DNA of 55,604 bases, from positions 1 through 55,604 of the forward strand of contig PLZO01000029.1 in NCBI GenBank assembly GCA_003152165.1, written 5' to 3'. How positions within the stretch are numbered: the stretch's first letter is position 1; every line of letters starts with the position of its first letter. The notes under the pieces were generated by a model that was not told where the DNA came from, ran no database searches, and saw only the letters and a list, made by a program, of their open reading frames with translations. The position numbers and the translations under genes were made by a program. Shown here in pieces: positions 5,988-45,154 of this stretch. The DNA comes from Chloroflexota bacterium. Lineage in GTDB: Bacteria > Chloroflexota > Limnocylindria > Limnocylindrales > CSP1-4.

Positions 5988-5989
5988 CG

Positions 5990-11363: not shown

Positions 11364-11398
11364 CGCCCGCACCACCGCCAGGATCCGGAGGTCGCACC

Positions 11399-11878: not shown

Positions 11879-11891
11879 GGGACCGCCAGGC

Positions 11892-12194: not shown

Positions 12195-12206
12195 GATCGC
12201 TCCCCG

Positions 12207-12610
12207 ATGAGCGGGCAACCTAGCGGGTCCGGCAACGGGACCGCTGGCGGCTTGGTGCGTTCGTTCTCGCGCGACCCGTCGGTCCGGTCGCGGGACCTGT
12301 CGCCGGGCATCTGGCGGCCGATCGGCGGGGCGGCCGCACCCGACCGCCGGATGCTCCTGATCTTCCTCGCCCTGATCGTCGCCGATGCCCCGGTGCGTGC
12401 AGCAAATCCGCTCATCTAGCGGGCGATCATCGACGATGGGATCCTCGGTCGGAAGGGCGGGCCCGTCGCCCAGCTCCCGATCGGGCTGGCCGGCCTCGCC
12501 CTTCTGGATGACGGGCTGTCACTGGTCTACCGCTGGATCTGGGCCCGATCGGCGAGGGACTGATCTTCGACCTAAACCAAGGACCCAGGTCTGCGGCCAT
12601 GTCCAGCGGA
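12207..12610 (+). pseudogene. Remnant of the N-terminus of an ABC exporter (fused TMD-NBD type)
   Basis: Pieces in three frames: LSPGIWRPIGGAAAPDRRMLLIFLALIVADA ; RAIIDDGILGRKGGPVAQLPIGLAGLALLDDGLSLVYRW ; GPIGEGLIFDL. It is cut off by the 3' end of the permease gene. Confidence 0.55.
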
Positions 12611-13432: not shown

Positions 13433-13433
13433 G

Positions 13434-14222: not shown

Positions 14223-14235
14223 GCGGTGTGCCTTT

Positions 14236-15039
14236 CTATACCGATGGTGGTTGGAGCCTGCGCTCCAAGCGTCGCATCCCGGAGCTGATCAAGGTTGCCT
14301 CGACGAGCAGGACGACGACGACGGCGAAGACATGGTCGCTCGCATTGGCGGCGCGGTAGGTCAACAACAGGAGTCCGATCCCGGATGACAGCAGCAGCAA
14401 CTCCCCTAAGACCATGCCGGCGAACGCACGGCCAAGCCCGATACGGAGCCCCGTCGCGATCGCAGGCAGGGCGCCCGGGATCAGCACGTAGCGCCAGAGG
14501 TTCAACTCGTTCGCGCCGTACGAGTGGGCCATCTCCACCAGTCGAGGATCCACACTGCGGATCCCTGCGCGCGTGTTGACCACGATGTAGACGACCGTAA
14601 ACACCATCACCAGTAGCACGCCGGCCGAGAGGCCGAACCCGATCATCATCACGATGATCGGAAGAAGGGGTGCAGCCGGCATCACGACAAGCAGCGAGAC
14701 GTAGGGCGCAGCCGCACGATCGATGAACAAGTGCCGGCCCATCACCAGGCCCAGTGGCACCGCAATCACCGCCGAGATGACGAAGCCGATGATCATCGTC
14801 AGATTGGACCGCAGGAGCGGCTCCCAGATGGCACCGCCGACGACGATGTCCACGAACGCGGAGACTGTGGCCGTAAACGTCGGCAATAGGATGTTGTGGG
14901 CGTCGGCCGCTCCGAGCTGCCAGATGATGGCGACAATGGCCAAGAAGGCGAGCGGCGGGGCCACCCTCCAGAGCCCACTCGAGCTCCGGAGGGCCGAGCG
15001 CCGCGTACCCTGCTCTAGGGCGCCTCCACTCTGAGTCAC
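14236..15039 (-). CDS. ABC transporter permease (second TMD)
   Basis: 267 aa, multi-TM, with EMAHSYGANELNLWRYVLIPGALP. GTG start. Confidence 0.85.
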   Translation of the reverse strand: MTQSGGALEQGTRRSALRSSSGLWRVAPPLAFLAIVAIIWQLGAADAHNILLPTFTATVSAFVDIVVGGAIWEPLLRSNLTMIIGFVISAVIAVPLGLVMGRHLFIDRAAAPYVSLLVVMPAAPLLPIIVMMIGFGLSAGVLLVMVFTVVYIVVNTRAGIRSVDPRLVEMAHSYGANELNLWRYVLIPGALPAIATGLRIGLGRAFAGMVLGELLLLSSGIGLLLLTYRAANASDHVFAVVVVLLVEATLISSGMRRLERRLQPPSV

Positions 15040-15054
15040 AGAACCAGGGACCGG

Positions 15055-16107
15055 CTACGGGGTCGAAGCTTGCTGGAGAAATGAGGTGTTATCGACCTGA
15101 GCAGCCGACAGACCAAGCGCGATGCCGCCGTACTTCACGCCGAACTGGATGGTAAAGTTCATCGCGGCATCGGTGAAGGCGAGCGTCGGGTCGTAAATAC
15201 CTTGCTGGTACTCAAGCACGATGGCCGCCTGGGTTGGAGCGTCATACGTGATGTTGTTTTCCTTGGCCGGGGCCGCCATCAGGCTCGGGTTTGCCAGCGC
15301 GTCCTTGTAGCCCTTCATCAGTCCTTTGAGGAAAGCGACGACGACCTCGGGATGGGCCGCCGCGAAGGCGTCGTTGACCACGAAGGTCGTGCTCAGGTAG
15401 CCCTTGAGCGAGGGGTCGGCAGCGAAGTTCACGAGGACGTGGAACTTGCCCGGCGCCTGAGTATTGATATTGACGTCATCGAGGGGTGTTTCCATGGTCG
15501 CATCGAGCTGGCCAGCGACCATGGCCGACGCGCGGACCTCCGACCCGGAGATGTATATGGGCTTTATGGCCGTCTGACTCGCGGCGGAGCAATTGTTCTG
15601 GATCCAATAGTCCGCCAAGGCGGTGGTCACGCCGCCGGGGCTGTTGAGCCCCCAGCGCTTCCCGACCAGGTCGTCGCACTTGGTGAGGGCATTTGTGGCT
15701 ACTACGTCCCAGGCTATCAACGACTCGAGCCCGATCACGTGGATCTTGGCGCCGGCCTGGATGGCCGAGAGGGCCGCCGTGGTCGCGCCATCCACGATGT
15801 CCACGTCGCCCGCGGATAGGGCGCCGAATGCAACCTCGGGGGTAGTGAAGAAGGTCGTCGTGGCATGCCAGCCTACCTTGTTCATCTCATCGAAGGCCAG
15901 GAGAGTAGGCATGTGGCTGGAGTCCGGCGAAGAAGTAAAGCCCAATTTGATCGTCCCCGTGACCGGAGTCGCCGCCGCCGCCGGCGTCGCCGAAGCGCCG
16001 GCGCTCGTGGGCGCTGCGGTCGGGTTGGGGGTGGCCGAGCCACCGCAGGCCGCCACTGCCAGGACGGCCGTGAGACAGAACGCCAGGACGCGATGTTTCC
16101 TGATCAT
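15055..16107 (-). CDS. ABC transporter substrate-binding lipoprotein (NMT1/THI5/TauA-like)
   Basis: I start it at MIRKHRV, 10 nt after AGGAGGA. Lipobox LAVAACGG followed by an Ala/Thr/Pro linker. Confidence 0.85.
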   Translation of the reverse strand: MIRKHRVLAFCLTAVLAVAACGGSATPNPTAAPTSAGASATPAAAATPVTGTIKLGFTSSPDSSHMPTLLAFDEMNKVGWHATTTFFTTPEVAFGALSAGDVDIVDGATTAALSAIQAGAKIHVIGLESLIAWDVVATNALTKCDDLVGKRWGLNSPGGVTTALADYWIQNNCSAASQTAIKPIYISGSEVRASAMVAGQLDATMETPLDDVNINTQAPGKFHVLVNFAADPSLKGYLSTTFVVNDAFAAAHPEVVVAFLKGLMKGYKDALANPSLMAAPAKENNITYDAPTQAAIVLEYQQGIYDPTLAFTDAAMNFTIQFGVKYGGIALGLSAAQVDNTSFLQQASTP

Positions 16108-16139
16108 GATCGCCATTCCTCCTGCATTGGGCAGCACGG

Positions 16140-17564
16140 TCAGGCGACCGGCTTGCCAAACTCACCGGCAACATCACGACGGATCCAGGTCACGGGGTCG
16201 GGAGCGTAATCTCGGTCGTAGTCCCCGGGATAGTTCATGCCCGGGATCGCCGGGACCCAGTCGTAGGCTAGGAGGTCGTCGGGGTTCGCGATGAGCGACG
16301 CGAGGCGACGGACCGCCGGGTCGTCCAGGACGGTGAGCCGTCCGCGGTCGATCAACTTGATCCACTCGCCGGTCTCCCGATCCTTGATCTTGTAGTCCGC
16401 GAAATAGGCGTGCACGTGGGCCATGTGCTTGATCGGGACCTGCTGCTCCTTGCCGAACTTGATGAACTCGGGGTCGTCGTGCTCGGCGCCGAAGCCGAAG
16501 TGGATGACGCCCGCGCGGTAGCGCTCGTTGCCGCCGCCGTACCAGGGGGTGGCCGTGTGCCACAGGGTGTCGACCGCGCGGAACGTCTTCGGGTTGGCGC
16601 CGATTGTGGCGTCGTTGAGGAAGGCGTAGCCGGGTCCGGGATAGGCCGGGTACTGGACGTCCTTGAAGCGCTCGACGATATCCTTGAAGCGCCGGCCGTA
16701 CTCGCCGCCGCCCAATATCGAGGCGACCTTGCCGCCCTTGACCTCGAGCTCCATGCGTGGGAAGAAGCCGGTGTGGTTGACGGTCCCCGCGATCACCCCG
16801 TTGATGGTCGGGTAGTGCTTGGCCGCGATCGGGGCGAACTTGCGCAGGCTGTCGATGCGGTTGCCACCGAAGGCCGGCCGGACCTGGGCGAACCTGACCG
16901 CCTCGATGGTCGTGCCGATGATGTGCCACGGGATCCACGAGCCCTGTCGCCAGAGCTGCGCCTCGTCGACGCTGACATCCCAGCTGAGGTCGGTGCCCTC
17001 CGGGTCCGTGATATGGACGGCCGACGCCCGGGCGAAGAGATCGACGAGCTTGCCCTCGAGCAGACGCTGGATCTGGACCGGGAAGTTCGTGTAGCGCGCG
17101 AGCAGGTCCTCGCGGCGTCGATACATCCAGTTCGCCCGGAACTTGCTGCCGATGGCCATCTTGTAGTGGCCCTCGCCCGCGTCCCCAGCGTAGATCTGGG
17201 TGAATTCCGGGTGGTCCTCGACTAGCTTGAGGAGCGCGTCCTGCTCGACCCGTTCCCCGGCCGAGATGGTCGTCTCGACATGGGCGTCCGATAGCTCGCG
17301 CCAGCCATCGGCGGCGGAGAAGTCGCCGGTCGGCAGGCCGAGGCTCGACCACTTCACGTGGGTCACCTGGCTCGCACCCGCGCGACGCATCGCGTCGGCG
17401 ATCAGCTCGAAGATCGCCTCATCCTGATCCTCGGTCGTCAGGACGACGATGTTGGCGCCGTTGTCGATCGGGCCCAAGACCCCTCGACCGCCGACCCGCT
17501 GGACAGCGGCATCCGCCACCGCCTCGAGCTCGCCCTGGCTGACCGCGCTGTTCGCGTCGCCCAT
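16140..17564 (-). CDS. Conserved-looking protein of unknown function; weak resemblance to the M29 aminopeptidase-T / NicX fold
   Basis: Clear coding bias across the 528-aa track ORF. The start is uncertain (ATG 17564 or 17630). Segments NIVVLTTEDQD..., AVHITDPEGTDLSW and GVIHFGFGAE...HMAHVHAYF loosely parallel NicX/AmpT. It is the first gene of the ABC operon. Confidence 0.6.
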   Translation of the reverse strand: MGDANSAVSQGELEAVADAAVQRVGGRGVLGPIDNGANIVVLTTEDQDEAIFELIADAMRRAGASQVTHVKWSSLGLPTGDFSAADGWRELSDAHVETTISAGERVEQDALLKLVEDHPEFTQIYAGDAGEGHYKMAIGSKFRANWMYRRREDLLARYTNFPVQIQRLLEGKLVDLFARASAVHITDPEGTDLSWDVSVDEAQLWRQGSWIPWHIIGTTIEAVRFAQVRPAFGGNRIDSLRKFAPIAAKHYPTINGVIAGTVNHTGFFPRMELEVKGGKVASILGGGEYGRRFKDIVERFKDVQYPAYPGPGYAFLNDATIGANPKTFRAVDTLWHTATPWYGGGNERYRAGVIHFGFGAEHDDPEFIKFGKEQQVPIKHMAHVHAYFADYKIKDRETGEWIKLIDRGRLTVLDDPAVRRLASLIANPDDLLAYDWVPAIPGMNYPGDYDRDYAPDPVTWIRRDVAGEFGKPVA

Positions 17565-17847
17565 GTACCCGGGGTACCGGGGAGCCGTGTGAGTGGTATC
17601 ACCCTCGAGTCGCACCAGGCCACCTCGCATAGTTCGATGAATTCGCCGAGCGACGGTCTGCGAGCAATATTCTGTGCGCTTCCACGTGCGCAACGGTATG
17701 CCGCGGCATTCTACGGCCCCCGTCACCTTGCGTCAACGCCCCCTATGGTGGGCGTTCGAGCCGCCCCGTCGGTGGCTAAACTGGGCGTGCATACGCGTAC
17801 TGCATGCGGCGCCACGTCCCATCGACGCCCATCCAGAGGAGGTGGTG

Positions 17848-18300
17848 ATGGCAACGAGGCGAACCCGTCGCGAGGACGGCCTGCCCAGCAGCGAGTTCGT
17901 GTATCGCTCCGCTCAAGGAGCAGATCATCTCGCGGGCAATCGCGCCCAACACGCGCCTCGTCGAACTCGGTATGGCGGACGAGTTCGGGGTACACCCGGA
18001 CGCTTGTGCGCGAGGCGCTCAAGCGACTGGCGGCGGAACACCTGGCTGGCCGCCATCCTGGAGTCGACGCAAAAAGCCGTCCAGGCCGACCGCCGGGAAC
18101 GAGATGCTGGAGCGCATCGCACGCGACCTGCGCGAGTTCGTGCGCCCCTTCACGACCCTACCCTTCGCCAGCCCGGAACGCGTCGAGGACGTGCTGCGCG
18201 AGCACATCGCCATCCTCGCCGCGCTCAGGAAGCACGACCCGGAGGTGGCCGAACTGAAACCGGCCGCCACGGCCAGCCGGGGCGGCCAGGGCATCGGCAC
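17848..18300 (+). pseudogene. GntR/FadR-family regulator, multiply frameshifted and internally shortened
   Basis: RBS GGAGG precedes ATG 17848 (MATRRTRREDGLPSSEFVYRS). The next frame reads LKEQIISRAIAPNTRLVELGMADEFGV. The third frame reads RTLVREALKRLAAEHL. It then returns to EMLERIARDLREF...VLREHIAILAALRKHDPEVAE (FCD-like). Confidence 0.7.
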
Positions 18301-18527
18301 AGCCGGGCACGAGGAGGACCTCCGGCCGCTCCTGGAGCCGCCGCAGCGTGGCGACGGGCGGATCGCTGCATACACCATCGTTCGCGCACCGTACCACGCG
18401 CCTGGGTACGTCCGCAGCGGGCCGTGCCGGTCACGCTTGCGGCGTGGCGATGCTACCAGTATGCTATGTGTACCATCGTGTACAGAGGGTCTGGTGGGAC
18501 CCGCCTGAGGATTCGGAGGGACCTCGC

Positions 18528-19028
18528 TTGCGGCCCGAGATCACCCGCGAGATCGTGTCCGGTCTGAAACAAGCGGGCATCGACTTGGTGTCGTACCTGC
18601 CCGAATCGTGGCTGCACGACGTGTACGACGTGCTGCTGGCCGATCCCGCATTCGAGACCGTGCTGGGCACCAACGAGGGCGAATGCGTGGGCATCGCCGC
18701 GGGTGCCTGGCTGGGCGGCCGGCGGGCGGTGGTCATCATGGAGAACTCCGGCCTGCGCGTGGCGGCGGAGGCGCTGGCGCGCTTAGGCATGGGGCATGGT
18801 CTGCCGGTGCTCATGATCATGCCCTTCCGCGGCGACCTGGGCGACCCCGACTGGTGGGCGCAGGCCCACGGCGTCACGCTGCGCCCGCTCCTCGAGGCCC
18901 TGCGCATCCCCTACCGAGTGGTCGATCGCGACGAGGATGTCGCCCGTTCCATCGTCGCCGCCTGGACGACCATCCACGCCTCGAAGTATCCGGCCGCGGT
19001 CATCCTGGGCCAAAGGGTCTGCCAGTGA
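18528..19028 (+). CDS. Split ThDP-dependent decarboxylase, alpha subunit (sulfopyruvate/phosphonopyruvate decarboxylase ComD-like)
   Basis: TTG at 18528 after GGAGGG. NEGECVGIAAGAWLGGRRAVVIMENSGLRVAAEAL...LPVLMIM is the pyrimidine-binding domain pattern. About 166 aa, as for ComD. Confidence 0.75.
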   Translation: MRPEITREIVSGLKQAGIDLVSYLPESWLHDVYDVLLADPAFETVLGTNEGECVGIAAGAWLGGRRAVVIMENSGLRVAAEALARLGMGHGLPVLMIMPFRGDLGDPDWWAQAHGVTLRPLLEALRIPYRVVDRDEDVARSIVAAWTTIHASKYPAAVILGQRVCQ

Positions 19029-19630
19029 AGCGTATCGACTGCCTGCGGGCGCTCGGGCCCTCAGTCACCGACGAGGACCTGGTCATCATCTCGCTGGGTG
19101 GGACCGGCCTCGAATGGCACGCCACCCGGCCCGGCGACAACAACCTCTTCCTTGTGGCCATGGGATGCAACACGCCGGTCGCCCTCGGCCTGGCGCTAGC
19201 CCTGAAGCACCGCCGCATCATCCTGCTCGAGACGGACGGCAGCCTCCTGCTAAACATGGGAGCGCTGGCCACACTGGGCAACCTGGCCCCGCCCAACCTG
19301 CGCATCTTCGTCTTCGACAACCAGGGCTACGAGCGGGTTCGCCACGACATCTCGGCCACCAGCGGCAAGACCGACCTGGCCGCCATCGCCCGTGGCTGCG
19401 GCATCGCCGGTGCGTCCACGGTGCGCACCGACCACGAGTTCGCGATCGCCGCCGACGCTACCATGCGCGGCGACGGCCTCTCGTTCGTGGTCGCCAAAGT
19501 GGAGCCCGGCATCGCCGCCGTGCCCGGCCGACCGAGCGATGGGCTCGAGGAAAAGTACCGCTTCGTCCGCCACGTCGAGCGTCTGGAGGGACGAACCATC
19601 CTGGCCGCCTATCGGGCCAAACTGGACTGA
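19025..19630 (+). CDS. Split ThDP-dependent decarboxylase, beta subunit (ComE-like)
   Basis: The GTG at 19025 overlaps the alpha-subunit stop (GTGA). The ThDP/Mg motif region reads LLETDGSLLLNMGALATLG...LRIFVFDNQGY. Confidence 0.75.
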   Translation: MKRIDCLRALGPSVTDEDLVIISLGGTGLEWHATRPGDNNLFLVAMGCNTPVALGLALALKHRRIILLETDGSLLLNMGALATLGNLAPPNLRIFVFDNQGYERVRHDISATSGKTDLAAIARGCGIAGASTVRTDHEFAIAADATMRGDGLSFVVAKVEPGIAAVPGRPSDGLEEKYRFVRHVERLEGRTILAAYRAKLD

Positions 19631-19670
19631 CAGTGACCGCTCGCTGAACCCCGACAAGAGGAGCCGCACC

Positions 19671-21071
19671 ATGCCCAAAAATCTGCGCACGTTCCTCGAA
19701 GAGGTGCAGACCCGCTGGCCGGACGATGTCCGCGTCGTCAAGCGGTCGGTCGACCCACGCTTCGAGATCACCGGCCTGCTGGCCAACCTGGAGCGGACGG
19801 GCCGCTTCCCGGTCGTCCGCTTCGATGACGTGCAGGGCTCCGCGTTGCCCGTGCTCATCAACCTCTTCGGGACCTACGAGCGCTGCGCGATGGCCCTGGG
19901 CCAGTCCTCCCTGTGGGAGGCTATCACCCGGTCGTCCGAGCGCGAAGCCGATCCCATCCCCACCCACGAGGTCACCGACGCGCCGTGCCAGGAGGTCGTC
20001 CTCACCGGCGACCAGGTCGACCTTCGGCGCCTGCCCATCACCACGCACAACGAGCTCGACGCGGGCGCCTACGTCTGCTCTGGCGGCACGATCATCAAGG
20101 ATCCCGATTCCGGCGCGCACAACGTGGGGATCTACCGCCACCAGGTGTTCGGGCCCCGGGAACTGGGCTATTTCGTGAATCCCTCCCACCACGGCAACTA
20201 TGTCCGGGTGCGCTACGAGGAGCTCGACCGGCCGATGCCGGTGGCCATCGCGGTCGGTCATCACCCGGCCATGCTGCTCGCCTCGGCGGCCCAGTTGCCG
20301 CGCATCGGCGGCGAGTTCGAGATGGCCGGCGGGATCATGGGTGAGTCGATGGGCCTGGTGAAGGCGGCCACCCAGGACATCATGGTGCCGTCGGAGGCGG
20401 AGGTCATCATCGAAGGCCAGATCGAGCCCCGTCACAAGCGGGACGAGGGCCCCTTCGGCGAGTACCCCTGGTATTACACCGGCTTGGGCGACCGGCCGGT
20501 CATCACGGTCACCGGCATCACCATGCGCCACGACGCGATCTGGCAGGACATCAACGCCGCCCACCCGGAGCACAACTGCCTGGGCATGATCCCCAAGGCC
20601 GGCAGCATCTGGCGGCGGGTCCTGGATGCCGTGCCCCATGCCACCAAAATGAACCTGCCCATGTCCGGGTGCGCCCGGCTCCACTGCTACATCTCGCTGC
20701 GCAAGCGGGCCGACGGCGAGCCCAAGCAGGCTGCCTTCGCCGCCTTCGCCGCCGAGGCGAACCTGAAGATGGTAGTGCTAGTGGACGACGATATCGATGT
20801 GTTCAATGAGCCAGAGGTGCTGTGGGCCGTGGCCACCCGCTTCCAGGGCGACCAGGACCTCTCGGTCATCCCCAACGCCCTCGGGGCGCATCTGGACCCG
20901 ACCGCCTTCGATATCACGCGCCTGCAGCACGGGGCGATGTCCACCAAGCTCATTATCGACGCGACCAAGCCGGCGCCGCCGACCGACTTCCCGAAGCGCG
21001 CGCTGGTGCCGAGCGCGGTGATCGATCGGATGGAGCCCGATCAGTACCTGGAGCCGATCACGCCGGCCTGA
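19671..21071 (+). CDS. UbiD-family (prenyl-FMN-dependent) reversible decarboxylase
   Basis: I start it at MPKNLRTFLEEV after AGAGGAG. The N-terminus LRTFLEEV...VKRSVDPRFEITGL...PVVRFDDVQGSALPVLINLFG is typical of UbiD. 466 aa. Confidence 0.85.
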   Translation: MPKNLRTFLEEVQTRWPDDVRVVKRSVDPRFEITGLLANLERTGRFPVVRFDDVQGSALPVLINLFGTYERCAMALGQSSLWEAITRSSEREADPIPTHEVTDAPCQEVVLTGDQVDLRRLPITTHNELDAGAYVCSGGTIIKDPDSGAHNVGIYRHQVFGPRELGYFVNPSHHGNYVRVRYEELDRPMPVAIAVGHHPAMLLASAAQLPRIGGEFEMAGGIMGESMGLVKAATQDIMVPSEAEVIIEGQIEPRHKRDEGPFGEYPWYYTGLGDRPVITVTGITMRHDAIWQDINAAHPEHNCLGMIPKAGSIWRRVLDAVPHATKMNLPMSGCARLHCYISLRKRADGEPKQAAFAAFAAEANLKMVVLVDDDIDVFNEPEVLWAVATRFQGDQDLSVIPNALGAHLDPTAFDITRLQHGAMSTKLIIDATKPAPPTDFPKRALVPSAVIDRMEPDQYLEPITPA

Positions 21072-21081
21072 GCCGACGCGC

Positions 21082-21106
21082 GGGGCGGCCGTAGCACGGC
21101 CGCCCC
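21082..21106. terminator. GC-rich hairpin between convergent genes (candidate bidirectional terminator)
   Basis: GGGGCGGCCG-TAGCA-CGGCCGCCCC, a perfect 10-bp stem. It sits in the 35-nt gap between the UbiD stop (21071) and the pyrD stop (21107). There is no obvious U-tract. Confidence 0.5.
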
Positions 21107-22063
21107 TCAACCGGCCTGAGCCGGCATCAGGTCGTGGGCCGACGGCCCCGGCTCGAGCGCGCCGATCAGGTCGCGTACGGAAGCCACGCCGTCGTCAGCC
21201 AGGCGCGTCTCGAGCGCGGTGACGATCCTAAGCATGGTGTCGGGGCGGGTGAACGTCGCCGATCCGACCTGCACGGCGCTCGCCCCGGCGAGCAGGAACT
21301 CGAGCACGTCGTCGACGGTCGCGATGCCGCCCACTCCGATGACCGGGATGGCCACCGCCTGCGCCACCTGCCACACGCAACGCAGCGCCACCGGCTTGAT
21401 AGCCGGCCCGGTGAAGCCGGCGGTCGGGGTGCCGGTCCGAGTGCGTCGCGTGCGCCCGTCGATTGCCATGCCCATCAGCGCATTGACAGCCGTGATCGCG
21501 GTCGCACCGCCGGCCTCGGCGGCCCGGGCGATGGCCGCGATCGAGGTGACGTTAGGCGTTAGCTTGACGATGACCGGCACGTCGACGCGCTCGACCACGC
21601 CCCGCACGACTGCCTCCACTACCTCCGGCACGGCGCCGATCTCCAGGCCGCCCGCCTCCAGGTTGGGACAGGACACGTTGACCTCAAAGGCGGCGATCCC
21701 GGCCACGCCGGCCAGGCGCGCGGCGATCTCCAAATAGGCGGCTATGGTGAGGCCGCCGATGCTCACGATGAGCGGCGGCGACCATGTCCGGTAGCGTGGC
21801 AGCAGCTCGGCGATGAAAGCCTCGGCACCCCGGCTGGGGATGCCCACCGAGTTGAGCATGCCGGCGTAGGTCTCGGCCAGGCGGTGGGCCGGATTGCCTG
21901 ACCGCGGCTCGGCGAAGACCGTCTTGGTGACCATCGCGCCCAGGCGCTCGAGGTCGACCACGTCGCCCAGTTCTGGGCCGAAACAGCCGGAGGCGGGCAT
22001 GATCGGATTGCGCAGCGCCAGGCTGCCGAGCTCGATGCTCAGGTCAGGCGGCGGCGTGCTCAT
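21107..22063 (-). CDS. pyrD: Dihydroorotate dehydrogenase class 1B, catalytic subunit
   Basis: I start it at MSTPPPDLSIELGSLALRNPIMPASGCFG. Also MLNSVGIPSRG, EVNVSCPN, VKLTPNV, GFTGPAIKPVALR and IGVGGIATVDDVLEFLLAGASAVQVGSA. Confidence 0.9.
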   Translation of the reverse strand: MSTPPPDLSIELGSLALRNPIMPASGCFGPELGDVVDLERLGAMVTKTVFAEPRSGNPAHRLAETYAGMLNSVGIPSRGAEAFIAELLPRYRTWSPPLIVSIGGLTIAAYLEIAARLAGVAGIAAFEVNVSCPNLEAGGLEIGAVPEVVEAVVRGVVERVDVPVIVKLTPNVTSIAAIARAAEAGGATAITAVNALMGMAIDGRTRRTRTGTPTAGFTGPAIKPVALRCVWQVAQAVAIPVIGVGGIATVDDVLEFLLAGASAVQVGSATFTRPDTMLRIVTALETRLADDGVASVRDLIGALEPGPSAHDLMPAQAG

Positions 22064-22941
22064 GCCACCGGTGCGGACGGGAGGTGGCGGAAGACGGGCC
22101 CGTCGCGGCACACGAGCGGCGACTCCTCGACCAGCCCGGGATGGCCCGTGGCACAGCCGTGGCAGAAGCCCAGACCGCATGCCATGTGGGCCTCGAGCGA
22201 GACCTGGACGCCCGTCCCAGTCGCCCGCGCCATCTCCAGGGCCAGACGCAGCAACCGGTCGGAACCGCACGCATAGATCTGGTCGACGCCGGTACGACAG
22301 TTTTCGGCCAGCCACGCGCCGACCGGTCCGACGCCGCTCGAGCCGTCGGTGTCGACGACCTCCCGCACCTCGACCGCGCCGGCCGCGCGGTAGGCCTCGC
22401 CGCCCACCAGCGCGTCGGAGTGGCGCGCGCTCACCAGGGCGTGCACGGCGATGCCGCGCGCGGCGGCGACGCCGGCGAGGGCCGTCAGCGAGCACGTCCC
22501 AATGCCCCGCCCGAGCAGCACGATGCGCTGCGCCGCGGGGAGCAGCACGAAGCCCCGCCCGAGCGGTCCGACGGTCACGATCCGATCGCCGCACGACCAG
22601 CGCGTCAGCCGCCGCGTCCCCTCACCGACCACGCGGTAGACGATCTCGATCCGACCGCCCGCCCGATCCCAGCCATAGATGGCCATCGGCCGAGGCAGCA
22701 CGGGCCAGCTTTCCTCGCCACGTGCGACGGTGAGCATCGCGAACTGGCCGGGCTCGACGGTCCGCGCGATGGCCGGCGCATCCAGCACCAGGCGCCAGTA
22801 CTCCGGCGCGATCAGGCCGTGCGTGACGACGGCCGCCTCGAGCAGCGCGGGCGGCGCTACCCGCGGCGCGGACGGGCCGGTCTCGGGGAGACGGGCCAGC
22901 CGGGGCAGGCTGCCCGTCGCCCCGGCGCTCGCGCCCACCAC
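22060..22941 (-). CDS. pyrK: DHOD 1B electron-transfer subunit (FAD / 2Fe-2S)
   Basis: RPMAIY FAD motif, LLGRGIGTCSL, and the C-terminal cluster MACGLGFCHGC...VCRDGPVF. I place the start at GTG 22941, just after the upstream stop. Its stop overlaps the pyrD start (ATGA). Confidence 0.85.
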   Translation of the reverse strand: MVGASAGATGSLPRLARLPETGPSAPRVAPPALLEAAVVTHGLIAPEYWRLVLDAPAIARTVEPGQFAMLTVARGEESWPVLPRPMAIYGWDRAGGRIEIVYRVVGEGTRRLTRWSCGDRIVTVGPLGRGFVLLPAAQRIVLLGRGIGTCSLTALAGVAAARGIAVHALVSARHSDALVGGEAYRAAGAVEVREVVDTDGSSGVGPVGAWLAENCRTGVDQIYACGSDRLLRLALEMARATGTGVQVSLEAHMACGLGFCHGCATGHPGLVEESPLVCRDGPVFRHLPSAPVA

Positions 22942-22943
22942 GG

Positions 22944-24323
22944 TCAGCCGCCCTCGGCGGTCGGCAGCGTCTCGAGCGAGCCGAGGAGGGTGTCGAGGCG
23001 CAGCACGGACCTGCGCAGGACCTCGACGCCGCGCGCGATATCGGACGCGCTGGTCCACTCCTCGGGTACATGGCTGAGGCCGCCGCGGCTGGGCACGAAG
23101 ACGATGCCCGCCGGCGTCACCCCGTTGATAACCTGGGCATCGTGGCCGGCGCCGCTGGTCATGACCTTGTAAGCGTAACCCAACTCGGCGCACACGCCGC
23201 TGGTCAAGCCGCGGATCCAGATGGGCAGCACGACCGGCGACGTGTCGGCGATGACTTCCGCGGTCACGCCTACCTTGCGGCGCTCGGCGAACGCCCGCGC
23301 CCGACGCACCACCTCGACCGCCAGCTGGCGCTGGCGATCCGAGTCGACGTCCCGGATGTCGACCGTCAGGCTGACCAGGCCGGGGATGGTCGTGATGCTA
23401 TTGGGGTGGACGTCCAGGCGCCCCACGGTGAGGCGGGCGCCCCGATTACGCGCGTCGTGCGCAATGGCCTCCGCCGCCAGCACGACCTCCGAGGCCGCCA
23501 CCAGAGCGTCCTTGCGGATGGCCATCGGCGTGCCGCCCGAATGGTCGGCACGGCCGGAGAGGACGAGGCGCAGGCGCGTGCTGCCCGACACGATGTCGAC
23601 TAGCCCGACCGGCGTGCCCTCCGCCTCCAGGGTGCGCGCCTGTTCGATATGCAGCTCGAGGAAGGCGGCCCAGTCGGCCGGCCGCCAGGCCGCACCGGGC
23701 ACCGCCCCCGGCTCCATCCCCAAGGATCGCAGCGCCTCCGCCAAGCTGACGCCGTCGGCGTCGCGGATGCGCGTCAGGTCGCGATCGGCGAGGTCGCCCG
23801 CCGCCGCTTTGCTGCCGATACACGGCTCCCCGAACCGGGCGCCCTCCTCGCCCGCGAAGATGACCACGCGCAGCGGATGTGCCAGCCGCGTCTCGTCCTC
23901 GATCAGCAGGCGCACCAGCTCGACCGCACCGACGACACCCACGATTCCGTCGAACTTGCCACCATGATAGACGCTGTCGAGGTGTGAGCCGACTCCGATG
24001 GCCGGGCGGGCGTCGCCTGCGCCGCCATAGGTGGCGATAGTGTTGCCGATCGCGTCCACCCGAACCTCGAGGGCCAACTCGCGCAACCAGCCCCCGACCA
24101 ACTCGTGCGCCTCGCGCTCCTCGCGTGTGAATGCCAGTCGGGAGACGCCACCGCCTGGGTCCGCGCCGATGCGGCCGATGCGAGCGATCTGCTCGCCGAT
24201 GCGCGCCGGATCGGCGCGGGTGGGCGTCGCGGCCGCTCCGGCCGCCGGTTCGTCCTCGGTCGTGCCGGCGTCCTCAGGCGACGACGGAACGGTTGTGCGC
24301 CCCCGGCCGCGGGCGATGGTCAT
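22944..24323 (-). CDS. M20-family amidohydrolase (N-carbamoyl-amino-acid / allantoate / beta-ureidopropionase type)
   Basis: GGVSRLAFTREE...WLRE...VRVDAIGN...GSHLDSVYHGGKFDGIVGV...GRADHSGGTPM...SGAGHDAQ. The ATG at 24323 overlaps the upstream stop (ATGA). Confidence 0.85.
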   Translation of the reverse strand: MTIARGRGRTTVPSSPEDAGTTEDEPAAGAAATPTRADPARIGEQIARIGRIGADPGGGVSRLAFTREEREAHELVGGWLRELALEVRVDAIGNTIATYGGAGDARPAIGVGSHLDSVYHGGKFDGIVGVVGAVELVRLLIEDETRLAHPLRVVIFAGEEGARFGEPCIGSKAAAGDLADRDLTRIRDADGVSLAEALRSLGMEPGAVPGAAWRPADWAAFLELHIEQARTLEAEGTPVGLVDIVSGSTRLRLVLSGRADHSGGTPMAIRKDALVAASEVVLAAEAIAHDARNRGARLTVGRLDVHPNSITTIPGLVSLTVDIRDVDSDRQRQLAVEVVRRARAFAERRKVGVTAEVIADTSPVVLPIWIRGLTSGVCAELGYAYKVMTSGAGHDAQVINGVTPAGIVFVPSRGGLSHVPEEWTSASDIARGVEVLRRSVLRLDTLLGSLETLPTAEGG

Positions 24324-24853
24324 CGGGCGGCCGCGTCCGATTGACTGCTGGCCGGCGGTTGCACCAGGCACACGATCCGGCCGGCCTGGTCGGCCACCTC
24401 GTCGAGGGCAGGGGTCGCCAGCAGCACGGCCGTCCCCACCAGGCTGCCCTCGAGCTGCTCCGCCAACGCGCGCGCTGCGCGTACGACATGACCATCGCGG
24501 ACGGCGTCCGCCACCAATAGCACGCGGCTGCCGGCCTCGATGCCCGGGCCGTGTCCGACCAGGCCATCGGCGTCATAGGCGCGCACGACGGAGACGCCCA
24601 GCTCGCGACCCACGACGTGCGCCAGCGCCACGTCCTCCGGGCGTTCCCAGATGAGCACCACCGACGGGTCCAGCTCGCGCGCCCGGGCGGCCAGCTCGAT
24701 GCCAAGCTGCTCCACGCCGGGTGGGTCGAGCAGCCCGTTGTAGGCGGGCAGCGCGTCGTCCCGCTCCGACCGGCCGGCCGTGGGCACGACCGCGGCGGCC
24801 GCAAGCAGCTTGCGCGCGCGATCCTCGTCCAGGCGCACGTGCGTCGCGCTCAC
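24320..24853 (-). CDS. Phosphoribosyltransferase-fold protein with a degenerate PRPP motif
   Basis: 177 aa. It has GSRVLLVADAVRDGHVV where PRTs have hhhh(D/E)D-h-x-T/S-G. Its GTG start overlaps the pyrE stop (GTGA). Confidence 0.6.
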   Translation of the reverse strand: MSATHVRLDEDRARKLLAAAAVVPTAGRSERDDALPAYNGLLDPPGVEQLGIELAARARELDPSVVLIWERPEDVALAHVVGRELGVSVVRAYDADGLVGHGPGIEAGSRVLLVADAVRDGHVVRAARALAEQLEGSLVGTAVLLATPALDEVADQAGRIVCLVQPPASSQSDAAAR

Positions 24854-25434
24854 AGTCCGAGCCCTGATCGGCTGAAGAGCGTCGAGAGGGTGAAACCGGC
24901 CGCCGAGATGGCCTCCGTGCCGCCCTGCTCGCGATCGATGACGGCCAGGATGCCGATGACCCGGGCACCCGCGTCGACGATGCGTTCCGCGGCGCGGATG
25001 GCCTGCGAGCCCGTGCTGATGACGTCCTCGATAAGTACCACGCGTTCCCCAGGATACAGCTCCCCTTCCACGAGGCGGGCCGTACTGTAAGCCTTGCTGC
25101 CCTTGCGGGCGATCACGAAGGGCAGCCCGGTCTCCAGCGAGAGGGCCGTGGCAAGGGCCACCGCACCTAGCTCGGTGCCCGCGATCCGGTCGGTCTCGGG
25201 GGGCACCAACTCGGCCAAGAACGAGGCCAGCCGGCGCAGGATGCCGGGCTTGGTCTCGAAGAGGTATTTGTCGAAGTAGTAGTTGCTGCGGGCCCCGGAA
25301 CTGAGCACGAAGTCGCCGCGCAGGTAGGCGGCCCCGACGGTGTCGCGGGCCAGCTCGGCGAGGCGACGCTCGCGGTCGCGGCGCACGCCAAAGACGAACG
25401 GCTCCCCTGCTTCGATCTCTGCCAGCTCGGTCAT
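24850..25434 (-). CDS. pyrE: Orotate phosphoribosyltransferase-like
   Basis: I start it at MTELAEIE (ATG 25432-25434). LRGDFVLSSGARSNYYFDKY, GTELGAVALATA, and the PRPP loop GERVVLIEDVISTGSQ. Confidence 0.85.
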   Translation of the reverse strand: MTELAEIEAGEPFVFGVRRDRERRLAELARDTVGAAYLRGDFVLSSGARSNYYFDKYLFETKPGILRRLASFLAELVPPETDRIAGTELGAVALATALSLETGLPFVIARKGSKAYSTARLVEGELYPGERVVLIEDVISTGSQAIRAAERIVDAGARVIGILAVIDREQGGTEAISAAGFTLSTLFSRSGLGL

Positions 25435-25835
25435 CCGCTCACCTGTTTCATACTGTAGCGACCCGCTGCCTAGCATTGGTGGCCTGGGAAGGAGGCCAAA
25501 GTATACCGTCGCGTACGTCCGCATCGCTGCAGGACGTGGCCTAGGGGCGTTCATGGTCCCGGCTGGAGCACGCCCTGGGCGCCCCGGACCAGCAGGTCCA
25601 GGCTGGCCAGCAGGAGCACCAGGAGGATGGCAAGACGATGTTCTGATCCGGAGGCGGACGCGGCGTATCGGAGCATTTGGAACGCCGACTGCGAAGGTAT
25701 GCGACCTCAAGTGACCAACGCAACATCCTCGACGAGGATCGTTGAGACGAGGCGCTTGAGGAGGCAGTCAGATGGGTTCAGCGCGGCGCGTGCCCAACGT
25801 GTCGGATGAGCACGCGCGTTCCCGCGCAGGGGCAG

Positions 25836-26552
25836 TCATCGCGGGTCGAACGGGAAGCCAGGGTCGAGCGCGGCAGGCTCCACGCGACTGTCGTCCATCG
25901 CCCAGGTCACGTCGGTGTAAACGTGTACGACCCCCGGGACCATGCTCACAGATCGCTCGATCAGCTCGGCGGTTGAGCGTCGCTCGACCCGCCCGCTGAT
26001 CGAGGCCATGCCGTCCGTGACGATGACCGTGAACAATGCCGGGTCGAGGCAGAGGATGCCGCGGAGGAAGTCCTCGCGGATCGTCCTGGCCAGCTGGTCG
26101 TCCGAGCGCACGTACGCTCGAACGAGATCGGCGCGCGTGACGATGCCGACGAGCCGTCCGTCGTCCACGACGGGTAGTCGGTTGACGCCTCGGGCGATCA
26201 TGACCGCGGCGGCCTCGGTGACGCGGTGACCCGACGTGATCGTGACGGCCGGCGCGGTCATGGCCTCGCTAGCAGTGACGGCACCGAGCTTGGCCAGCTG
26301 GGCTCGCGACTCCCGCGACTCACCCAGGAAGCGGGCGAGCGGCCGGTGCCGAACCGCGTTGGGACCCTGCTCCTTCACCAGCAGGTCGGCCTCGGACACG
26401 ACTCCGAGAACAGCGTCTTCCACATCGACCACTGGCAGGCCACTAATCCTGTGGTCGATGAGCAGATGGGCGACCTCCCTGAGAGGCGTGCCGCATCGGA
26501 CCGATATCACTGATTGGGTCATCACGTCGCGAACAGTCATCATCAGACTCAC
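25836..26552 (-). CDS. CBS-pair + BON domain protein
   Basis: MTVRDVMTQSVISV...ISGLPVVD and a second CBS (ASEAMTAPAVTI...VNRLPVVDDGRLVGIVTRADL), then a BON-like C-terminus (ISGRVERRSTAELIE). Confidence 0.85.
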   Translation of the reverse strand: MSLMMTVRDVMTQSVISVRCGTPLREVAHLLIDHRISGLPVVDVEDAVLGVVSEADLLVKEQGPNAVRHRPLARFLGESRESRAQLAKLGAVTASEAMTAPAVTITSGHRVTEAAAVMIARGVNRLPVVDDGRLVGIVTRADLVRAYVRSDDQLARTIREDFLRGILCLDPALFTVIVTDGMASISGRVERRSTAELIERSVSMVPGVVHVYTDVTWAMDDSRVEPAALDPGFPFDPR

Positions 26553-41359: not shown

Positions 41360-41401
41360 ATGCCGCTGGCGCATTGTGCACCGGACGCGAGCGGACCCGC
41401 G

Positions 41402-45124: not shown

Positions 45125-45154
45125 TCACGGGTTGGCGAGAGAGGGCGGTTCGGC

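Follow-up and report, generated by a model that had tools for sequence, protein, structure and literature searches.

A rare cassette of pyrimidine-biosynthesis paralogues in Chloroflexota and Actinomycetota, a candidate orotate utilisation module

In the orotate fermentation of Clostridium oroticum, a class-1B dihydroorotate dehydrogenase acts as orotate reductase and is followed by dihydroorotase and then by ureidosuccinase (EC 3.5.1.7). M20 carbamoylases end the bacterial reductive pyrimidine pathway, and in yeasts a catabolic route is opened by a uracil phosphoribosyltransferase (PRT), URC6. Here we analysed a 55,604-nucleotide stretch of Chloroflexota DNA (hereafter the window), in which five minus-strand genes encode, in order, an orotate phosphoribosyltransferase (OPRT)-like protein, a PRT-like protein, an M20 amidohydrolase, PyrK and a class-1B PyrD. 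An earlier note on this DNA had interpreted the set as catabolic or salvage and tied it to a converging ComD/ComE/UbiD decarboxylase unit. Our analysis supports an accessory module of pyrimidine-biosynthesis paralogues rather than an ordinary pyr operon, but the linkage to the decarboxylases is weak. We found no experiment or paper in the literature that bears on the cassette.

All five open reading frames translate cleanly, and their junctions, read directly from the sequence, are a GTGA overlap (cTGTGAg, OPRT/PRT-like), an ATGA overlap (gATGAc, PRT-like/M20), a 2-nt gap (TGAccGTG, M20/PyrK) and a further ATGA overlap (cATGAg, PyrK/PyrD). Between the stop codons of PyrD and the converging UbiD lies a G+C-rich hairpin (21,082–21,106, assigned to neither strand; GGGGCGGCCG / TAGCA / CGGCCGCCCC) with a perfect stem of 10–11 bp, a dG of -26.6 kcal/mol and a z-score of -3.2 relative to shuffled sequences; as no T-run follows it, its role as a terminator is putative. 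The eight genes of the two units, their overlaps and the hairpin all lie where the earlier note had placed them, and the 10-bp stem that it described gains an eleventh pair in the fold. Profile searches agreed with its family assignments for the five minus-strand genes, only weakly at the Pfam level for the PRT-fold protein.

The first cassette gene (24,850–25,434, minus strand) encodes a 194-aa OPRT-like phosphoribosyltransferase that scores 127.7 bits against TIGR00336 (pyrE; cut-off 106.8), can be aligned with the human, Leishmania and M. tuberculosis OPRTs, and keeps FVLSSG..S.YY.D (orotate motif), RKGSKAYSTARLVEG (flexible loop) and VVLIEDVISTGSQ (PRPP motif). The gene caller placed its start at 25,476; the ATG at 25,434, chosen in the earlier note, is favoured by 194-aa orthologues and by an AGGTGAG 6 nt ahead of it. 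Conservation within the cassette is highest for this gene, with 60–94% identity across related loci, except in Phytohabitans (locus L013; 40%). The overlapping second gene (24,320–24,853, minus strand) encodes a 177-aa protein with a weak Pribosyltran match (16.5 bits, under the gathering score of 26.3). Its AF2 model (pLDDT 89) was assigned by Foldseek to the type I PRT fold (TM ~0.68 to XPRT, APRT and OPRT), and a conserved VLLVADAVRD stands where the PRPP motif would be. It is probably a conserved, catalytically degenerate partner of the OPRT, and might act as a non-catalytic or regulatory subunit gating salvage versus breakdown. In Phytohabitans the two genes form a single fused ORF of 338 aa, which has neither the catalytic RK..K loop nor the N-terminal orotate motif, and the PRT pair may therefore not work as an OPRT there. 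The degenerate but conserved partner, its fusion with the OPRT-like gene in a single species and the lack of an obvious place for an OPRT in a purely catabolic scheme had all escaped the earlier note.

One way to accommodate a PRT is a nucleotide-level catabolism modelled on the yeast URC pathway, in which phosphoribosylation of the base comes first and the ribotide, or else a heterocycle other than orotate, is the substrate of the later enzymes. This would make sense of a PRT gene that leads the cassette, is its most conserved member and is otherwise unexplained, and URC6 provides a precedent; however, PyrD and the dihydroorotases found in these clusters look like ordinary free-base enzymes, and the Phytohabitans PRT domain is without the catalytic loop, so that we regard the reading as highly improbable.

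The third gene (22,944–24,323, minus strand) encodes a 459-aa M20 protein of the hydantoinase/carbamoylase family (TIGR01879, 395 bits) that keeps metal- and ureido-binding motifs, with SHLDS, KFDG, GEEG, HIEQ, DIRD and GHDA present as metal/catalytic motifs. Among solved relatives the L-N-carbamoylase 3N5F comes closest (313 bits), above ureidoglycolate and allantoate amidohydrolases, and we regard the M20 protein as a candidate N-carbamoyl-L-aspartate amidohydrolase (ureidosuccinase). The 293-aa PyrK-like FAD/NAD, 2Fe-2S electron-transfer subunit (22,060–22,941, minus strand; DHODB_Fe-S_bind, 37.4 bits) falls under every NCBIfam PyrK equivalog cut-off (118 vs. 314) and belongs to its own clade, apart from the housekeeping PyrK of locus L037. 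The last gene (21,107–22,063, minus strand) encodes a 318-aa class-1B dihydroorotate dehydrogenase catalytic subunit that scores 353 bits against NF005574 (cut-off 269) and aligns over its full length with L. lactis DHODB (1EP1, 250 bits). This PyrD retains all DHODB orotate/FMN residues, with the conserved motifs NVSCPN (containing the catalytic Cys), MLNSVG, VKLTPN, AVNALMG and GPAIKP; the other DHO_dh gene of the window is a divergent paralogue and not a standard PyrD. Judging from the motifs kept in PyrD, OPRT and M20, the cassette enzymes look active on orotate-type substrates.

These matches also bear on reductive uracil/thymine catabolism, for which PyrD-PyrK would be a dihydropyrimidine dehydrogenase, the M20 protein a beta-ureidopropionase and the PRT a uracil salvage enzyme. 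The terminal place of M20 carbamoylases in that bacterial pathway is in its favour, as is a 193-bit match of our M20 protein to a solved N-carbamoyl-beta-alanine amidohydrolase. Nevertheless, PyrD reaches 137 bits with PreA (cut-off 335) against 353 with the DHODB model, the orotate-binding motifs are kept, the PRT is of the OPRT rather than the UPRT type, and the ring-opening enzymes of relatives are dihydroorotases, not dihydropyrimidinases. We consider this the least probable of the explanations.

The five-gene set recurs in about 13 contexts in two phyla, among soil Chloroflexota and Actinomycetota. Our neighbourhood survey confirmed that the insertion of M20 and PRT-fold genes between pyrE and pyrK/pyrD is conserved in relatives, and gene order is constant in all Chloroflexota-type contigs of sufficient length to reveal it. 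Among the Actinomycetota loci, PyrD lies upstream in L012 and L036, the L037 cassette is without its own PyrD, and in Phytohabitans IclR, the fused PRT and M20 are followed by a dihydroorotase that exceeds its equivalog cut-off (611.7 > 538). An intact pyrC immediately follows PyrK in L012, and a DHOase/allantoinase-type amidohydrolase converges on the cassette in L037. IclR regulators (37–53% related) precede the cassette in L008, L012, L013, L036 and L037, the gene in L036 overlapping that of the OPRT by 4 nt, and MFS, TauE or ABC transporters adjoin it in relatives. The PRT-like marker family is rare, with 65 clusters among 5.8e9 proteins and a presence in 4 of 185,579 species genomes. OPRT clusters at least 67% identical to that of the window number more than 120, so some close OPRT relatives could sit outside cassettes; where the contig measures 4 kb or more, roughly half of these clusters pair with cassette contigs, solely by identical contig size.

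We consider it very unlikely that the pyrE, pyrK and pyrD of the cassette simply serve de novo UMP synthesis, with two unrelated genes inserted between them. PyrD and PyrE do exceed equivalog cut-offs, and the cassette adjoins pyrF and pyrK-pyrD in L037 and pur genes in L012. By contrast, the inserted genes are conserved as strictly as the pyr genes, so few species genomes carry the set, IclR control and adjoining transporters are atypical of pyr operons, and in Phytohabitans the PRT pair, M20 and pyrC are present but neither pyrD nor pyrK is. The pyrK and pyrD beside pyrF in L037, a Nitriliruptorales MAG, are moreover a second, housekeeping-type pair, 33% and 45% identical to those of the window, whereas the L037 cassette PyrK is 58% identical; the evidence for paralogy to housekeeping genes comes from this one genome. 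Recurrence, rarity, co-transcription with IclR in Actinomycetota, nearby transporters, the dihydroorotases of three Actinomycetota loci and the L037 pair thus sustain the accessory-module claim.

The reading that we favour, to which we assign about an even chance, is that the cassette is an inducible module for the utilisation of orotate, dihydroorotate and N-carbamoyl-aspartate, with M20 as the candidate ureidosuccinase. The five genes would form one accessory, substrate-inducible operon that gives the pool of these compounds two exits. In breakdown, the NAD-linked class-1B PyrD-PyrK, which interconverts orotate and dihydroorotate, could run as an NADH:orotate reductase, as the C. oroticum enzyme does; dihydroorotase would open the ring, and M20 would irreversibly cleave N-carbamoyl-L-aspartate to L-aspartate, CO2 and NH3. 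In salvage, the OPRT would turn orotate into OMP. We infer the direction of flux, the M20 substrate and the role of the PRT pair. Several Actinomycetota carry a dihydroorotase gene within the operon or next to it, and in three loci the enzyme completes the route from orotate through dihydroorotate and N-carbamoyl-aspartate to aspartate that the earlier note had proposed; in the window it would have to come from a housekeeping PyrC.

As had been reported, pyrB, pyrC, carAB, pyrF and ubiX are absent from the annotated window genes, and tblastn of the window with two dihydroorotases, a cyclic amidohydrolase and UbiX returned nothing at E <= 1. A dihydropyrimidinase remnant claimed at 36.3 kb is unconfirmed because the amidohydrolase queries gave no match at that threshold, and the claimed HyuAB is present at 0.4–4.8 kb. 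Several points weigh against the utilisation reading. A dihydroorotase or other ring-opening amidohydrolase is missing from most Chloroflexota versions as well as from the window; a purely catabolic route has no need of the OPRT and its partner, which would be assigned to salvage and regulation; the best NCBIfam match of M20 over its cut-off is a subfamily labelled allantoate amidohydrolase; close OPRT relatives may exist outside cassettes; motifs are lost in Phytohabitans; and the reading does not explain why UbiD genes recur in the vicinity of the cassette.

The converging plus-strand unit comprises a split ThDP decarboxylase and a UbiD. Its ComD-like alpha subunit (18,528–19,028; TTG start) matches TPP_enzyme_N and scores 89.9 bits with TIGR03845, under the cut-off of 147.95. 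A GTGA overlap (aGTGAa, read directly) joins it to the ComE-like, ThDP-binding beta subunit (19,025–19,630; TPP_enzyme_C, 53 bits), for which sulfopyruvate and phosphonopyruvate decarboxylase models are all under cut-off and whose closest annotated relatives (46%) occur in N-heterocycle-type clusters of Rhizobium megaplasmids. The 466-aa UbiD-family decarboxylase (19,671–21,071) has all three UbiD domains (TIGR00148, 339 bits) and is HmfF-like, its best solved relative being the furandicarboxylate decarboxylase HmfF (6H6V, 271 bits), from which it differs in having Lys for Arg304 while keeping Arg331 and the heteroatom-recognising His. Upstream of ComD is a decayed GntR/FCD regulator gene (17,854–18,508, plus strand), with homology to the L031 GntR scattered over three frames and residues 76–156 missing; the truncated gene call recurs identically in independent assemblies. 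On the minus strand, a divergent transporter operon begins with a 491-aa protein (16,140–17,615). Its family is unnamed and rare, with 324 representatives among 1.84 billion, and the protein has no Pfam, NCBIfam or PDB sequence match and a NicX/M29-aminopeptidase-like fold (AF2 pLDDT 93; Foldseek top 2,5-dihydroxypyridine dioxygenase 7CN3, then PepS and AmpT). The operon encodes an NMT1/THI5-type ABC transporter (12,611–16,107, minus strand; binding protein, permease, ATPase, permease). Transporters of this type, with non-orthologous binding proteins, occur near the cassette in L005, L013, L028, L030, L031 and L032. With its decayed GntR and the back-to-back NicX-like operon, the ComD/ComE/UbiD unit most likely constitutes a heteroaromatic-acid module of its own, grouped with that operon.

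Alternatively, a UbiD-type decarboxylase, perhaps joined by the ThDP enzyme, could form one pathway with the cassette for a carboxylated N-heterocycle, UbiD making orotate from a dicarboxylated precursor or interconverting uracil and orotate. Locus L011 keeps the convergent ComD/ComE/UbiD arrangement at 65–75% identity, and the window UbiD retains the HmfF His that recognises a ring heteroatom beside the carboxylated carbon. UbiD genes from three different clades are situated no more than 10 kb from the cassette (window and L011; L008; L030, L031 and L032, plus a remnant in L005), a recurrence that the earlier note missed and of which the utilisation model gives no account. An Ensifer plasmid operon with dihydroorotase-family, M20 hydrolase, UbiD and UbiX genes indicates that these families can cooperate, but its proteins are just 33–38% identical and it fits the known xanthinase route better. 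The UbiD genes, moreover, are non-orthologous between contexts (30–37% identity) and absent from L012, L013, L028, L029, L036 and L037, and L005, L031 and L032 are syntenic and thus not independent observations. An orthologue of the window UbiD (74%) was found beside a cassette only in L011, ComDE likewise only in the window and L011, and the whole unit is missing in L029, the closest relative with a long contig. The decayed regulator and divergent operon of the window unit, and the failure to find ubiX in the window or in any of the cassette loci surveyed, also speak against a joint pathway, which we judge unlikely. No support was found for the suggestion that UbiD replaces PyrF.

The cassette most likely enables the soil Chloroflexota and Actinomycetota that carry it to feed on orotate and its precursors or to obtain nucleotides from them.

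Five genes on the minus strand of the window form a compact cassette, consisting of an orotate phosphoribosyltransferase (OPRT)-like gene (24850-25434; TIGR00336, 127.7 bits, cut-off 106.8), a gene for a 177-aa PRT-like protein (24320-24853) that matches Pribosyltran only below threshold, an M20 hydantoinase/carbamoylase-family amidase gene (22944-24323; TIGR01879, 395 bits, cut-off 204), a PyrK-like gene (22060-22941) that matches the DHODB Fe-S domain and falls below the cut-off of every PyrK equivalog, and a class-1B pyrD (21107-22063; NF005574, 353 bits, cut-off 269). All five ORFs translate free of stops, and their junctions read, in order, GTGA, ATGA, TGA-cc-GTG, and ATGA, in agreement with the gene families and junctions claimed for them in an earlier note. 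Also confirmed was the convergent plus-strand unit of ComD-like, ComE-like, and UbiD genes described there, together with the hairpin between the two units: the 35-nt spacer separating the UbiD and PyrD genes holds a perfect 10-11-bp G+C stem (dG -26.6 kcal/mol, z = -3.2). The window, with ~67% G+C, corresponds to a contig of 55.7 kb from a soil metagenome (ENA ERZ27254241 k141_2149633). No riboswitch or PyrR-type leader was found 5' of the cassette, nor any Rfam family at threshold across the whole window, and neither a sigma-70-like promoter nor a T-run terminator was found in 25380-25900. The genes pyrB, pyrC, carAB, and pyrF are absent from the cassette operon and from the annotated genes of the window. 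By tblastn the window contains no dihydroorotase, and searches with three cyclic amidohydrolase queries found no dihydropyrimidinase, including the remnant of one that had been suspected at first reading.

The PRT-like protein, as the most distinctive gene product of the cassette, was used as the search marker. Its homologs form 65 clusters among 5.8 billion proteins, and it occurs in four loci among 185,579 species genomes, i.e., in two Chloroflexi MAGs, one Actinomycetes MAG, and the cultured Phytohabitans kaempferiae. Source labels of close homologs include Candidatus Limnocylindria, Chloroflexota, Actinomycetes, and Nitriliruptorales. The assemblies that carry the cassette include GCA_034420275.1, GCA_040960095.1, GCA_009379795.1, and GCA_054608855.1, the MAGs with contigs CANJLL010000002 and JAKADK010000017, and NZ_JBHLUH01 of Phytohabitans kaempferiae. 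The order OPRT > PRT-like > M20 > PyrK > PyrD is constant in all Chloroflexota-type contigs of sufficient length; PyrD lies upstream of the cassette in two Actinomycetes MAGs (L012 and L036), and the cassette of a Nitriliruptorales MAG (L037) has no PyrD of its own. OPRT, the most conserved gene, is 60-94% identical to that of the window outside Phytohabitans, and the corresponding values are 55-89% for M20, 58-78% for cassette-type PyrD, 46-81% for PyrK, and 29-86% for PRT-like; the OPRT-like domain of Phytohabitans is only 40% identical. The OPRT and M20 clusters recovered outnumber those of PRT-like, probably because PRT-like evolves fast. About half of the OPRT matches on contigs of at least 4 kb lie on a contig equal in length to that of an M20 or PRT-like match, which is a rough sign of co-location. 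A search of plasmids with the PRT-like protein gave no match, and one with M20 gave unrelated contexts only, such as a Streptomyces biosynthetic cluster.

In alignment with the human, Leishmania, and M. tuberculosis enzymes, the cassette OPRT retains the FxLxSG…Y.D orotate motif, the RK..K.Y.T…EG flexible loop, and the PRPP motif VVLIEDVISTGSQ. It looks active from these residues, and conversion of orotate and PRPP to OMP is predicted. For its PRT-like neighbor, a type I PRT fold is predicted with confidence (AF2 pLDDT 89; Foldseek probability 1.0, TM ~0.68 to XPRT, APRT, and OPRT). At the site of the PRPP motif, an acidic pair followed by a T/S-G-x-T/S loop, the PRT-like protein reads VLLVADAVRDGHV, and throughout the family this loop is swapped for a conserved L-V-A-D-A-V-R-D (D-A-V-R-D). 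Lacking the motif, and with a Pribosyltran score of 16.5 below the gathering score of 26.3, it was not filed among type I PRT enzymes. Further loops conserved in the family are KYNGLADP and RAYDADGLVGH. Since the fold is kept, the PRPP loop replaced, and the family's own motifs conserved, the sequences indicate that PRT-like is a catalytically degenerate PRT paralog under selection. Two divergent members, P0062 and P0063, are extended at the C-terminus by a segment containing a CP.C motif, which may bind metal, and one of them bears the JGI annotation orotate phosphoribosyltransferase.

In Phytohabitans (L013), OPRT-like and PRT-like domains form a single 338-aa ORF whose product no longer contains the catalytic RK..K loop. 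PyrR and PurR are PRT-fold proteins that act as regulators rather than catalysts. Based on the translational coupling, the fusion, and these precedents, we infer that PRT-like could be a regulatory or scaffolding subunit of OPRT. PyrR/PurR and HisG-HisZ, the latter a pair of a catalytic protein and its dead paralog, likewise couple a degenerate PRT fold that is still under selection to an active enzyme. PRT-like differs from them in that it has no RNA- or DNA-binding region and that its predicted partner is OPRT. We know of no OPRT/pseudo-PRT pair described to date.

The cassette PyrD also exceeds the class-1 equivalog cut-off of TIGR01037 (295 vs. 270) and aligns over its full length with the DHODB of Lactococcus lactis (1EP1), with conservation of NVSCPN (containing the catalytic Cys), MLNSVG, VKLTPN, AVNALMG, and GPAIKP, and of the Lys and Asn residues that hold orotate and FMN. 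By sequence, it looks like an active, full class-1B enzyme. PyrK has an Fe-S domain above the Pfam gathering score and the 2Fe-2S Cys motif, and its best PyrK equivalog score is 118 against a cut-off of 314. The best solved relative of the M20 protein is the Geobacillus L-N-carbamoylase 3N5F (313 bits), ahead of ureidoglycolate amidohydrolase (235 bits), allantoate amidohydrolase (206 bits), and the beta-alanine synthases, and its translation shows the metal, catalytic, and ureido-binding motifs of the family. We consider it a candidate ureidosuccinase (EC 3.5.1.7), which would convert N-carbamoyl-L-aspartate to aspartate, CO2, and NH3; this assignment is drawn solely from its operon partners, namely PyrD and PyrK in the window and a dihydroorotase in L012 and L013. 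Ureidosuccinase activity was described in the 1950s, and to our knowledge no gene or sequence has been assigned to it and no sequence model for it exists.

The Phytohabitans cluster (L013; NZ_JBHLUH010000060, 9392-12971) encodes an IclR regulator, the fused OPRT/PRT-like protein, M20 (WP_377256389.1), and a dihydroorotase (WP_377256386.1) that passes the equivalog cut-off (611.7 vs. 538) and is named dihydroorotase in RefSeq as well. Its divergent operon encodes an NMT1-ABC transporter, an AbgB-like M20 protein, a ThDP enzyme, and an aldehyde dehydrogenase. An intact pyrC lies immediately 3' of PyrK in L012, and a DHOase/allantoinase-type amidohydrolase gene converges on the cassette in L037. 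Taken together, the gene contents of these clusters suggest that they jointly encode the series orotate <-> dihydroorotate <-> N-carbamoyl-aspartate -> aspartate. The Amidohydro_1 genes near the cassette in the related loci L008 and L031 were considered as dihydroorotases and set aside, being TRZ/ATZ or guanine-deaminase-type deaminases instead.

That the module is built from paralogs of pyrimidine-biosynthesis genes, as proposed in the earlier note, is borne out by L037 (GCA_009379795.1, 5284-13662), where a housekeeping-type pyrK-pyrD pair and pyrF directly adjoin the IclR-led cassette. The housekeeping-type pyrK and pyrD are 33% and 45% identical to those of the window, and the cassette PyrK of L037 is 58% identical to the window PyrK. 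Because this cassette has its own PyrK beside the housekeeping-type pair, the cassette PyrK is a paralog and not the housekeeping gene; in L037 it may pair with the housekeeping PyrD.

In L008, L012, L013, L036, and L037 the cassette is led by an IclR regulator gene, and these regulators are related at 37-53%; the IclR gene precedes the OPRT gene in L012, L036, and L037, with a 4-nt overlap in L036. MFS, TauE, or ABC transporters adjoin the cassette in most loci. Together with the dihydroorotases and the paralogy, the regulators and transporters fit an inducible utilization operon and do not fit a biosynthetic one of the PyrR type. NMT1-type ABC transporters were rejected as a specific partner of the cassette, as the loci do not share orthologous binding proteins and two genes of this kind occur in the window; their co-occurrence is probably a background effect.

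The closest biochemical precedent compared here is the orotate fermentation of Clostridium oroticum, in which a class-1B DHODH acts as NADH-linked orotate reductase and is followed by dihydroorotase and ureidosuccinase (EC 3.5.1.7). This pathway is known as biochemistry only, from an anaerobic Firmicute, and our search of the accessible literature on ureidosuccinase, orotate catabolism or degradation, and C. oroticum genes found nothing relevant. The cassette shares with it the predicted orotate reduction, ring opening, and carbamoylase release of aspartate, CO2, and NH3, as well as a dihydroorotase, which is encoded within the operon in L012 and L013. It differs in its hosts, which are Limnocylindria-type Chloroflexota and Actinomycetota, in the added OPRT and degenerate PRT, and in that most versions, including that of the window, have no dihydroorotase of their own. 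The Bacillus-type de novo pyr operon (…pyrK-pyrD-pyrF-pyrE) similarly holds pyrK-pyrD and pyrE in one unit with overlapping junctions. However, the cassette lacks the pyrB, pyrC, carAB, and pyrF of that operon, starts with pyrE, includes a carbamoylase that would destroy a pathway intermediate, is under IclR rather than PyrR, and is rare and patchy in distribution. Reductive pyrimidine catabolism (PreT/PreA or PydA, dihydropyrimidinase, and an M20 beta-ureidopropionase/L-carbamoylase) follows the same logic of reduction, ring opening, and decarbamoylation with an M20-family carbamoylase. By contrast, the cassette reductase is DHODB-type rather than PreA-type (137 bits on the PreA model, below 335), the ring opener of its relatives is dihydroorotase, and its expected product is aspartate, not beta-alanine. 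The cassette was not filed under this pathway because it has neither a PreA-type reductase nor a dihydropyrimidinase.

We propose, with about an even chance of being right, that the cassette is an inducible operon linking the pool of orotate, dihydroorotate, and carbamoyl-aspartate to both aspartate and OMP. PyrD-PyrK, dihydroorotase, and M20 acting as ureidosuccinase would take the pool to aspartate, CO2, and NH3, and OPRT would take it to OMP. If the substrate entered as orotate, PyrD-PyrK would run backwards; if it entered as dihydroorotate or carbamoyl-aspartate, PyrD-PyrK would run forwards toward OMP, and the sequence is compatible with either entry. The PRT pair is the weak point of this model, as breakdown needs no OPRT.

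The convergent unit comprises a ComD-like gene (18528-19028, plus strand; 166 aa, TPP_N-type, split ThDP alpha), a ComE-like gene (19025-19630, plus strand; 201 aa, TPP_C, split ThDP beta) that overlaps it by GTGA, and a UbiD gene (19671-21071, plus strand; PF20695, PF01977, and PF20696; TIGR00148, 339 vs. 245). The split alpha/beta ThDP architecture is that of sulfopyruvate decarboxylase (ComDE). Nevertheless, identification of the split enzyme as ComDE or phosphonopyruvate decarboxylase was rejected, as the scores are below all cut-offs (89.9 vs. 147.95 and 105.8 vs. 221.5 for the ComDE equivalogs; 76 and 97 vs. 312.5 for phosphonopyruvate decarboxylase), and the ComE-like protein is ~33% identical to true ComE vs. 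46% to an unnamed Rhizobium clade. These nearest annotated relatives (46%) lie on Rhizobium megaplasmids in clusters with GMC oxidoreductase, amidohydrolase, Rieske oxygenases, and molybdenum hydroxylase. One such locus, L035 on Rhizobium tumorigenes pRt1078 (8504-18588), has LysR, ThDP-alpha, ThDP-beta, GMC oxidoreductase, and amidohydrolase genes, followed by genes for Rieske oxygenase, molybdenum hydroxylase, and aldehyde dehydrogenase; a BMP-family ABC transporter adjoins it. The split ThDP enzymes of this clade belong neither to ComDE nor to phosphonopyruvate decarboxylase.

The UbiD of the window is closest to the furandicarboxylate decarboxylase HmfF (271 bits) and retains the His that matches the furan-substrate residue of HmfF, which is reported to be key for furan-type substrates (PMC7976604). 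A GMC oxidoreductase gene lies upstream of ComD in the related locus L011, as in HMF clusters. The unit differs from HmfF/HmfG systems in that no UbiX/HmfG is nearby and in its split ThDP decarboxylase, which HMF clusters lack. A tblastn search with Ensifer UbiX gave no match in the window at E <= 1, in line with the earlier note, and none in the fetched loci at E <= 1e-8. A plasmid search with UbiD returned relatives of at most 37% identity only.

Of the linkage that the earlier note suggested surveying, the insertion of M20 and PRT-like is kept in relatives, but only a single further lineage, that of L011, has orthologs of all three ComDE/UbiD genes (65-75% identical) converging on the cassette; the DNA of L007 and L010 is ~93% identical to that of L011. 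Among long contigs, L029 has the PRT-like protein nearest to that of the window (83%), and there different genes come after the cassette and transposases flank it. The GntR/FCD gene 5' of ComD (17854-18508, plus strand) is a pseudogene whose homology to the L031 regulator extends over three frames with an internal deletion, and the same shortened gene is called in independent assemblies from other samples. The unit is arranged divergently to an operon for an NMT1-type ABC transporter. The simplest reading of the gene content is that ComDE/UbiD would be a separate heteroaromatic-acid module; among known pathways of that kind, the xanthinase route of clostridia has a UbiD step.

UbiD-family genes nevertheless occur no more than 10 kb from the cassette in several loci, and they fall into three clades. 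One is represented in the window and L011, a second in L008, and a third in L030, L031, and L032 and by a remnant in L005. These genes represent three or four independent associations, given that L005, L031, and L032 share synteny, and by informal estimate seem to exceed chance expectation. This recurrence keeps a joint pathway, including a uracil/orotate (de)carboxylase, alive at low probability. In its functional form, which we regard as very improbable, the prFMN enzyme would reversibly interconvert uracil plus CO2 and orotate, and the cassette would pull the reaction by orotate reduction and hydrolysis to aspartate or by conversion to OMP; if true, this would be a carboxylative uracil catabolism or salvage without dihydropyrimidinase or PyrF-type free-base chemistry. 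Separately, L039 on the Ensifer canadensis plasmid pT173d (10216-17949) carries a compact operon for a dihydroorotase-family protein, an M20 Zn-dependent hydrolase, UbiD, and UbiX, with an MFS gene on one side and a LysR gene on the other. Its three enzyme types match consecutive steps of the 'xanthinase' purine route, namely ring opening, decarbamoylation, and decarboxylation. This route has been reported from Clostridia and Bacilli, so a version on a rhizobial plasmid could be noteworthy.

Most related loci, like the remainder of the window, are catabolic islands that encode HyuAB, CoA transferases, molybdenum hydroxylase, isochorismatase-family amidases, luciferase-like monooxygenases, and aldolases. 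The plus-strand genes at 437-6751 encode the HyuA/HyuB that had been recognized earlier (ATP-dependent hydantoinase/oxoprolinase family), a family III CoA transferase, and a short citrate-synthase-like protein (citryl-CoA-lyase-type), and form a separate putative catabolic operon. Next to them, a 354-aa divergent class-1 DHODH-like paralog (6755-7819, minus strand) has NVSCHN instead of NVSCPN, Arg in place of the FMN Lys, and insertions; with 149 bits against a cut-off of 269 and the altered motif, this DHO_dh gene was rejected as a housekeeping pyrD. It is 75-78% identical to a gene of L029 (7469-8497) 1.3 kb upstream of the cassette, and a similar DHODH-like gene lies upstream of OPRT in L014. 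The region 41360-51067 encodes medium and large molybdenum hydroxylase subunits, a luciferase-like monooxygenase, an isochorismatase-family amidase, an SDR, an aminotransferase, and an HpcH/HpaI aldolase, enzyme families that recur around the cassette in L029-L032.

The first gene of the NMT1-type ABC transporter operon (16140-17615, minus strand) encodes a 491-aa protein without a Pfam, NCBIfam, or PDB sequence match, whose rare family has 324 representatives in 1.84 billion and a conserved His-rich H..H.H motif. Its AF2 model (pLDDT 93) has the fold of the 2,5-dihydroxypyridine dioxygenase NicX and of M29 aminopeptidases, and a possible role for the protein is to cleave the ring of a hydroxylated N-heterocycle. 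We rejected it as the missing ring-opening amidohydrolase because of this NicX/M29-like fold and its absence from all other cassette loci; a 487-aa Phytohabitans protein considered as its homolog is an AbgB/HmrA-type M20 protein.

Overall, the searchable literature appears to contain no description of the cassette, of its occurrence in Chloroflexota and Actinomycetota, of the gene suggested here for ureidosuccinase, or of the OPRT/pseudo-PRT pair. If the proposed function is correct, ureidosuccinase would have a gene, and the 'pyrE, pyrK, pyrD' annotations in these genomes would not denote biosynthetic genes. The PRT-like proteins would be a rare new degenerate PRT-fold family, always found with OPRT and once fused to it, and possibly a type of catalytic/regulatory pair new for pyrimidine enzymes. 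Breakdown of orotate to aspartate would extend beyond one anaerobic Clostridium to soil Chloroflexota and Actinomycetota, encoded there by a cassette that is mobile and regulated. One organism in culture, Phytohabitans kaempferiae TBRC 3947, has the cassette in reduced form, which makes direct testing possible.
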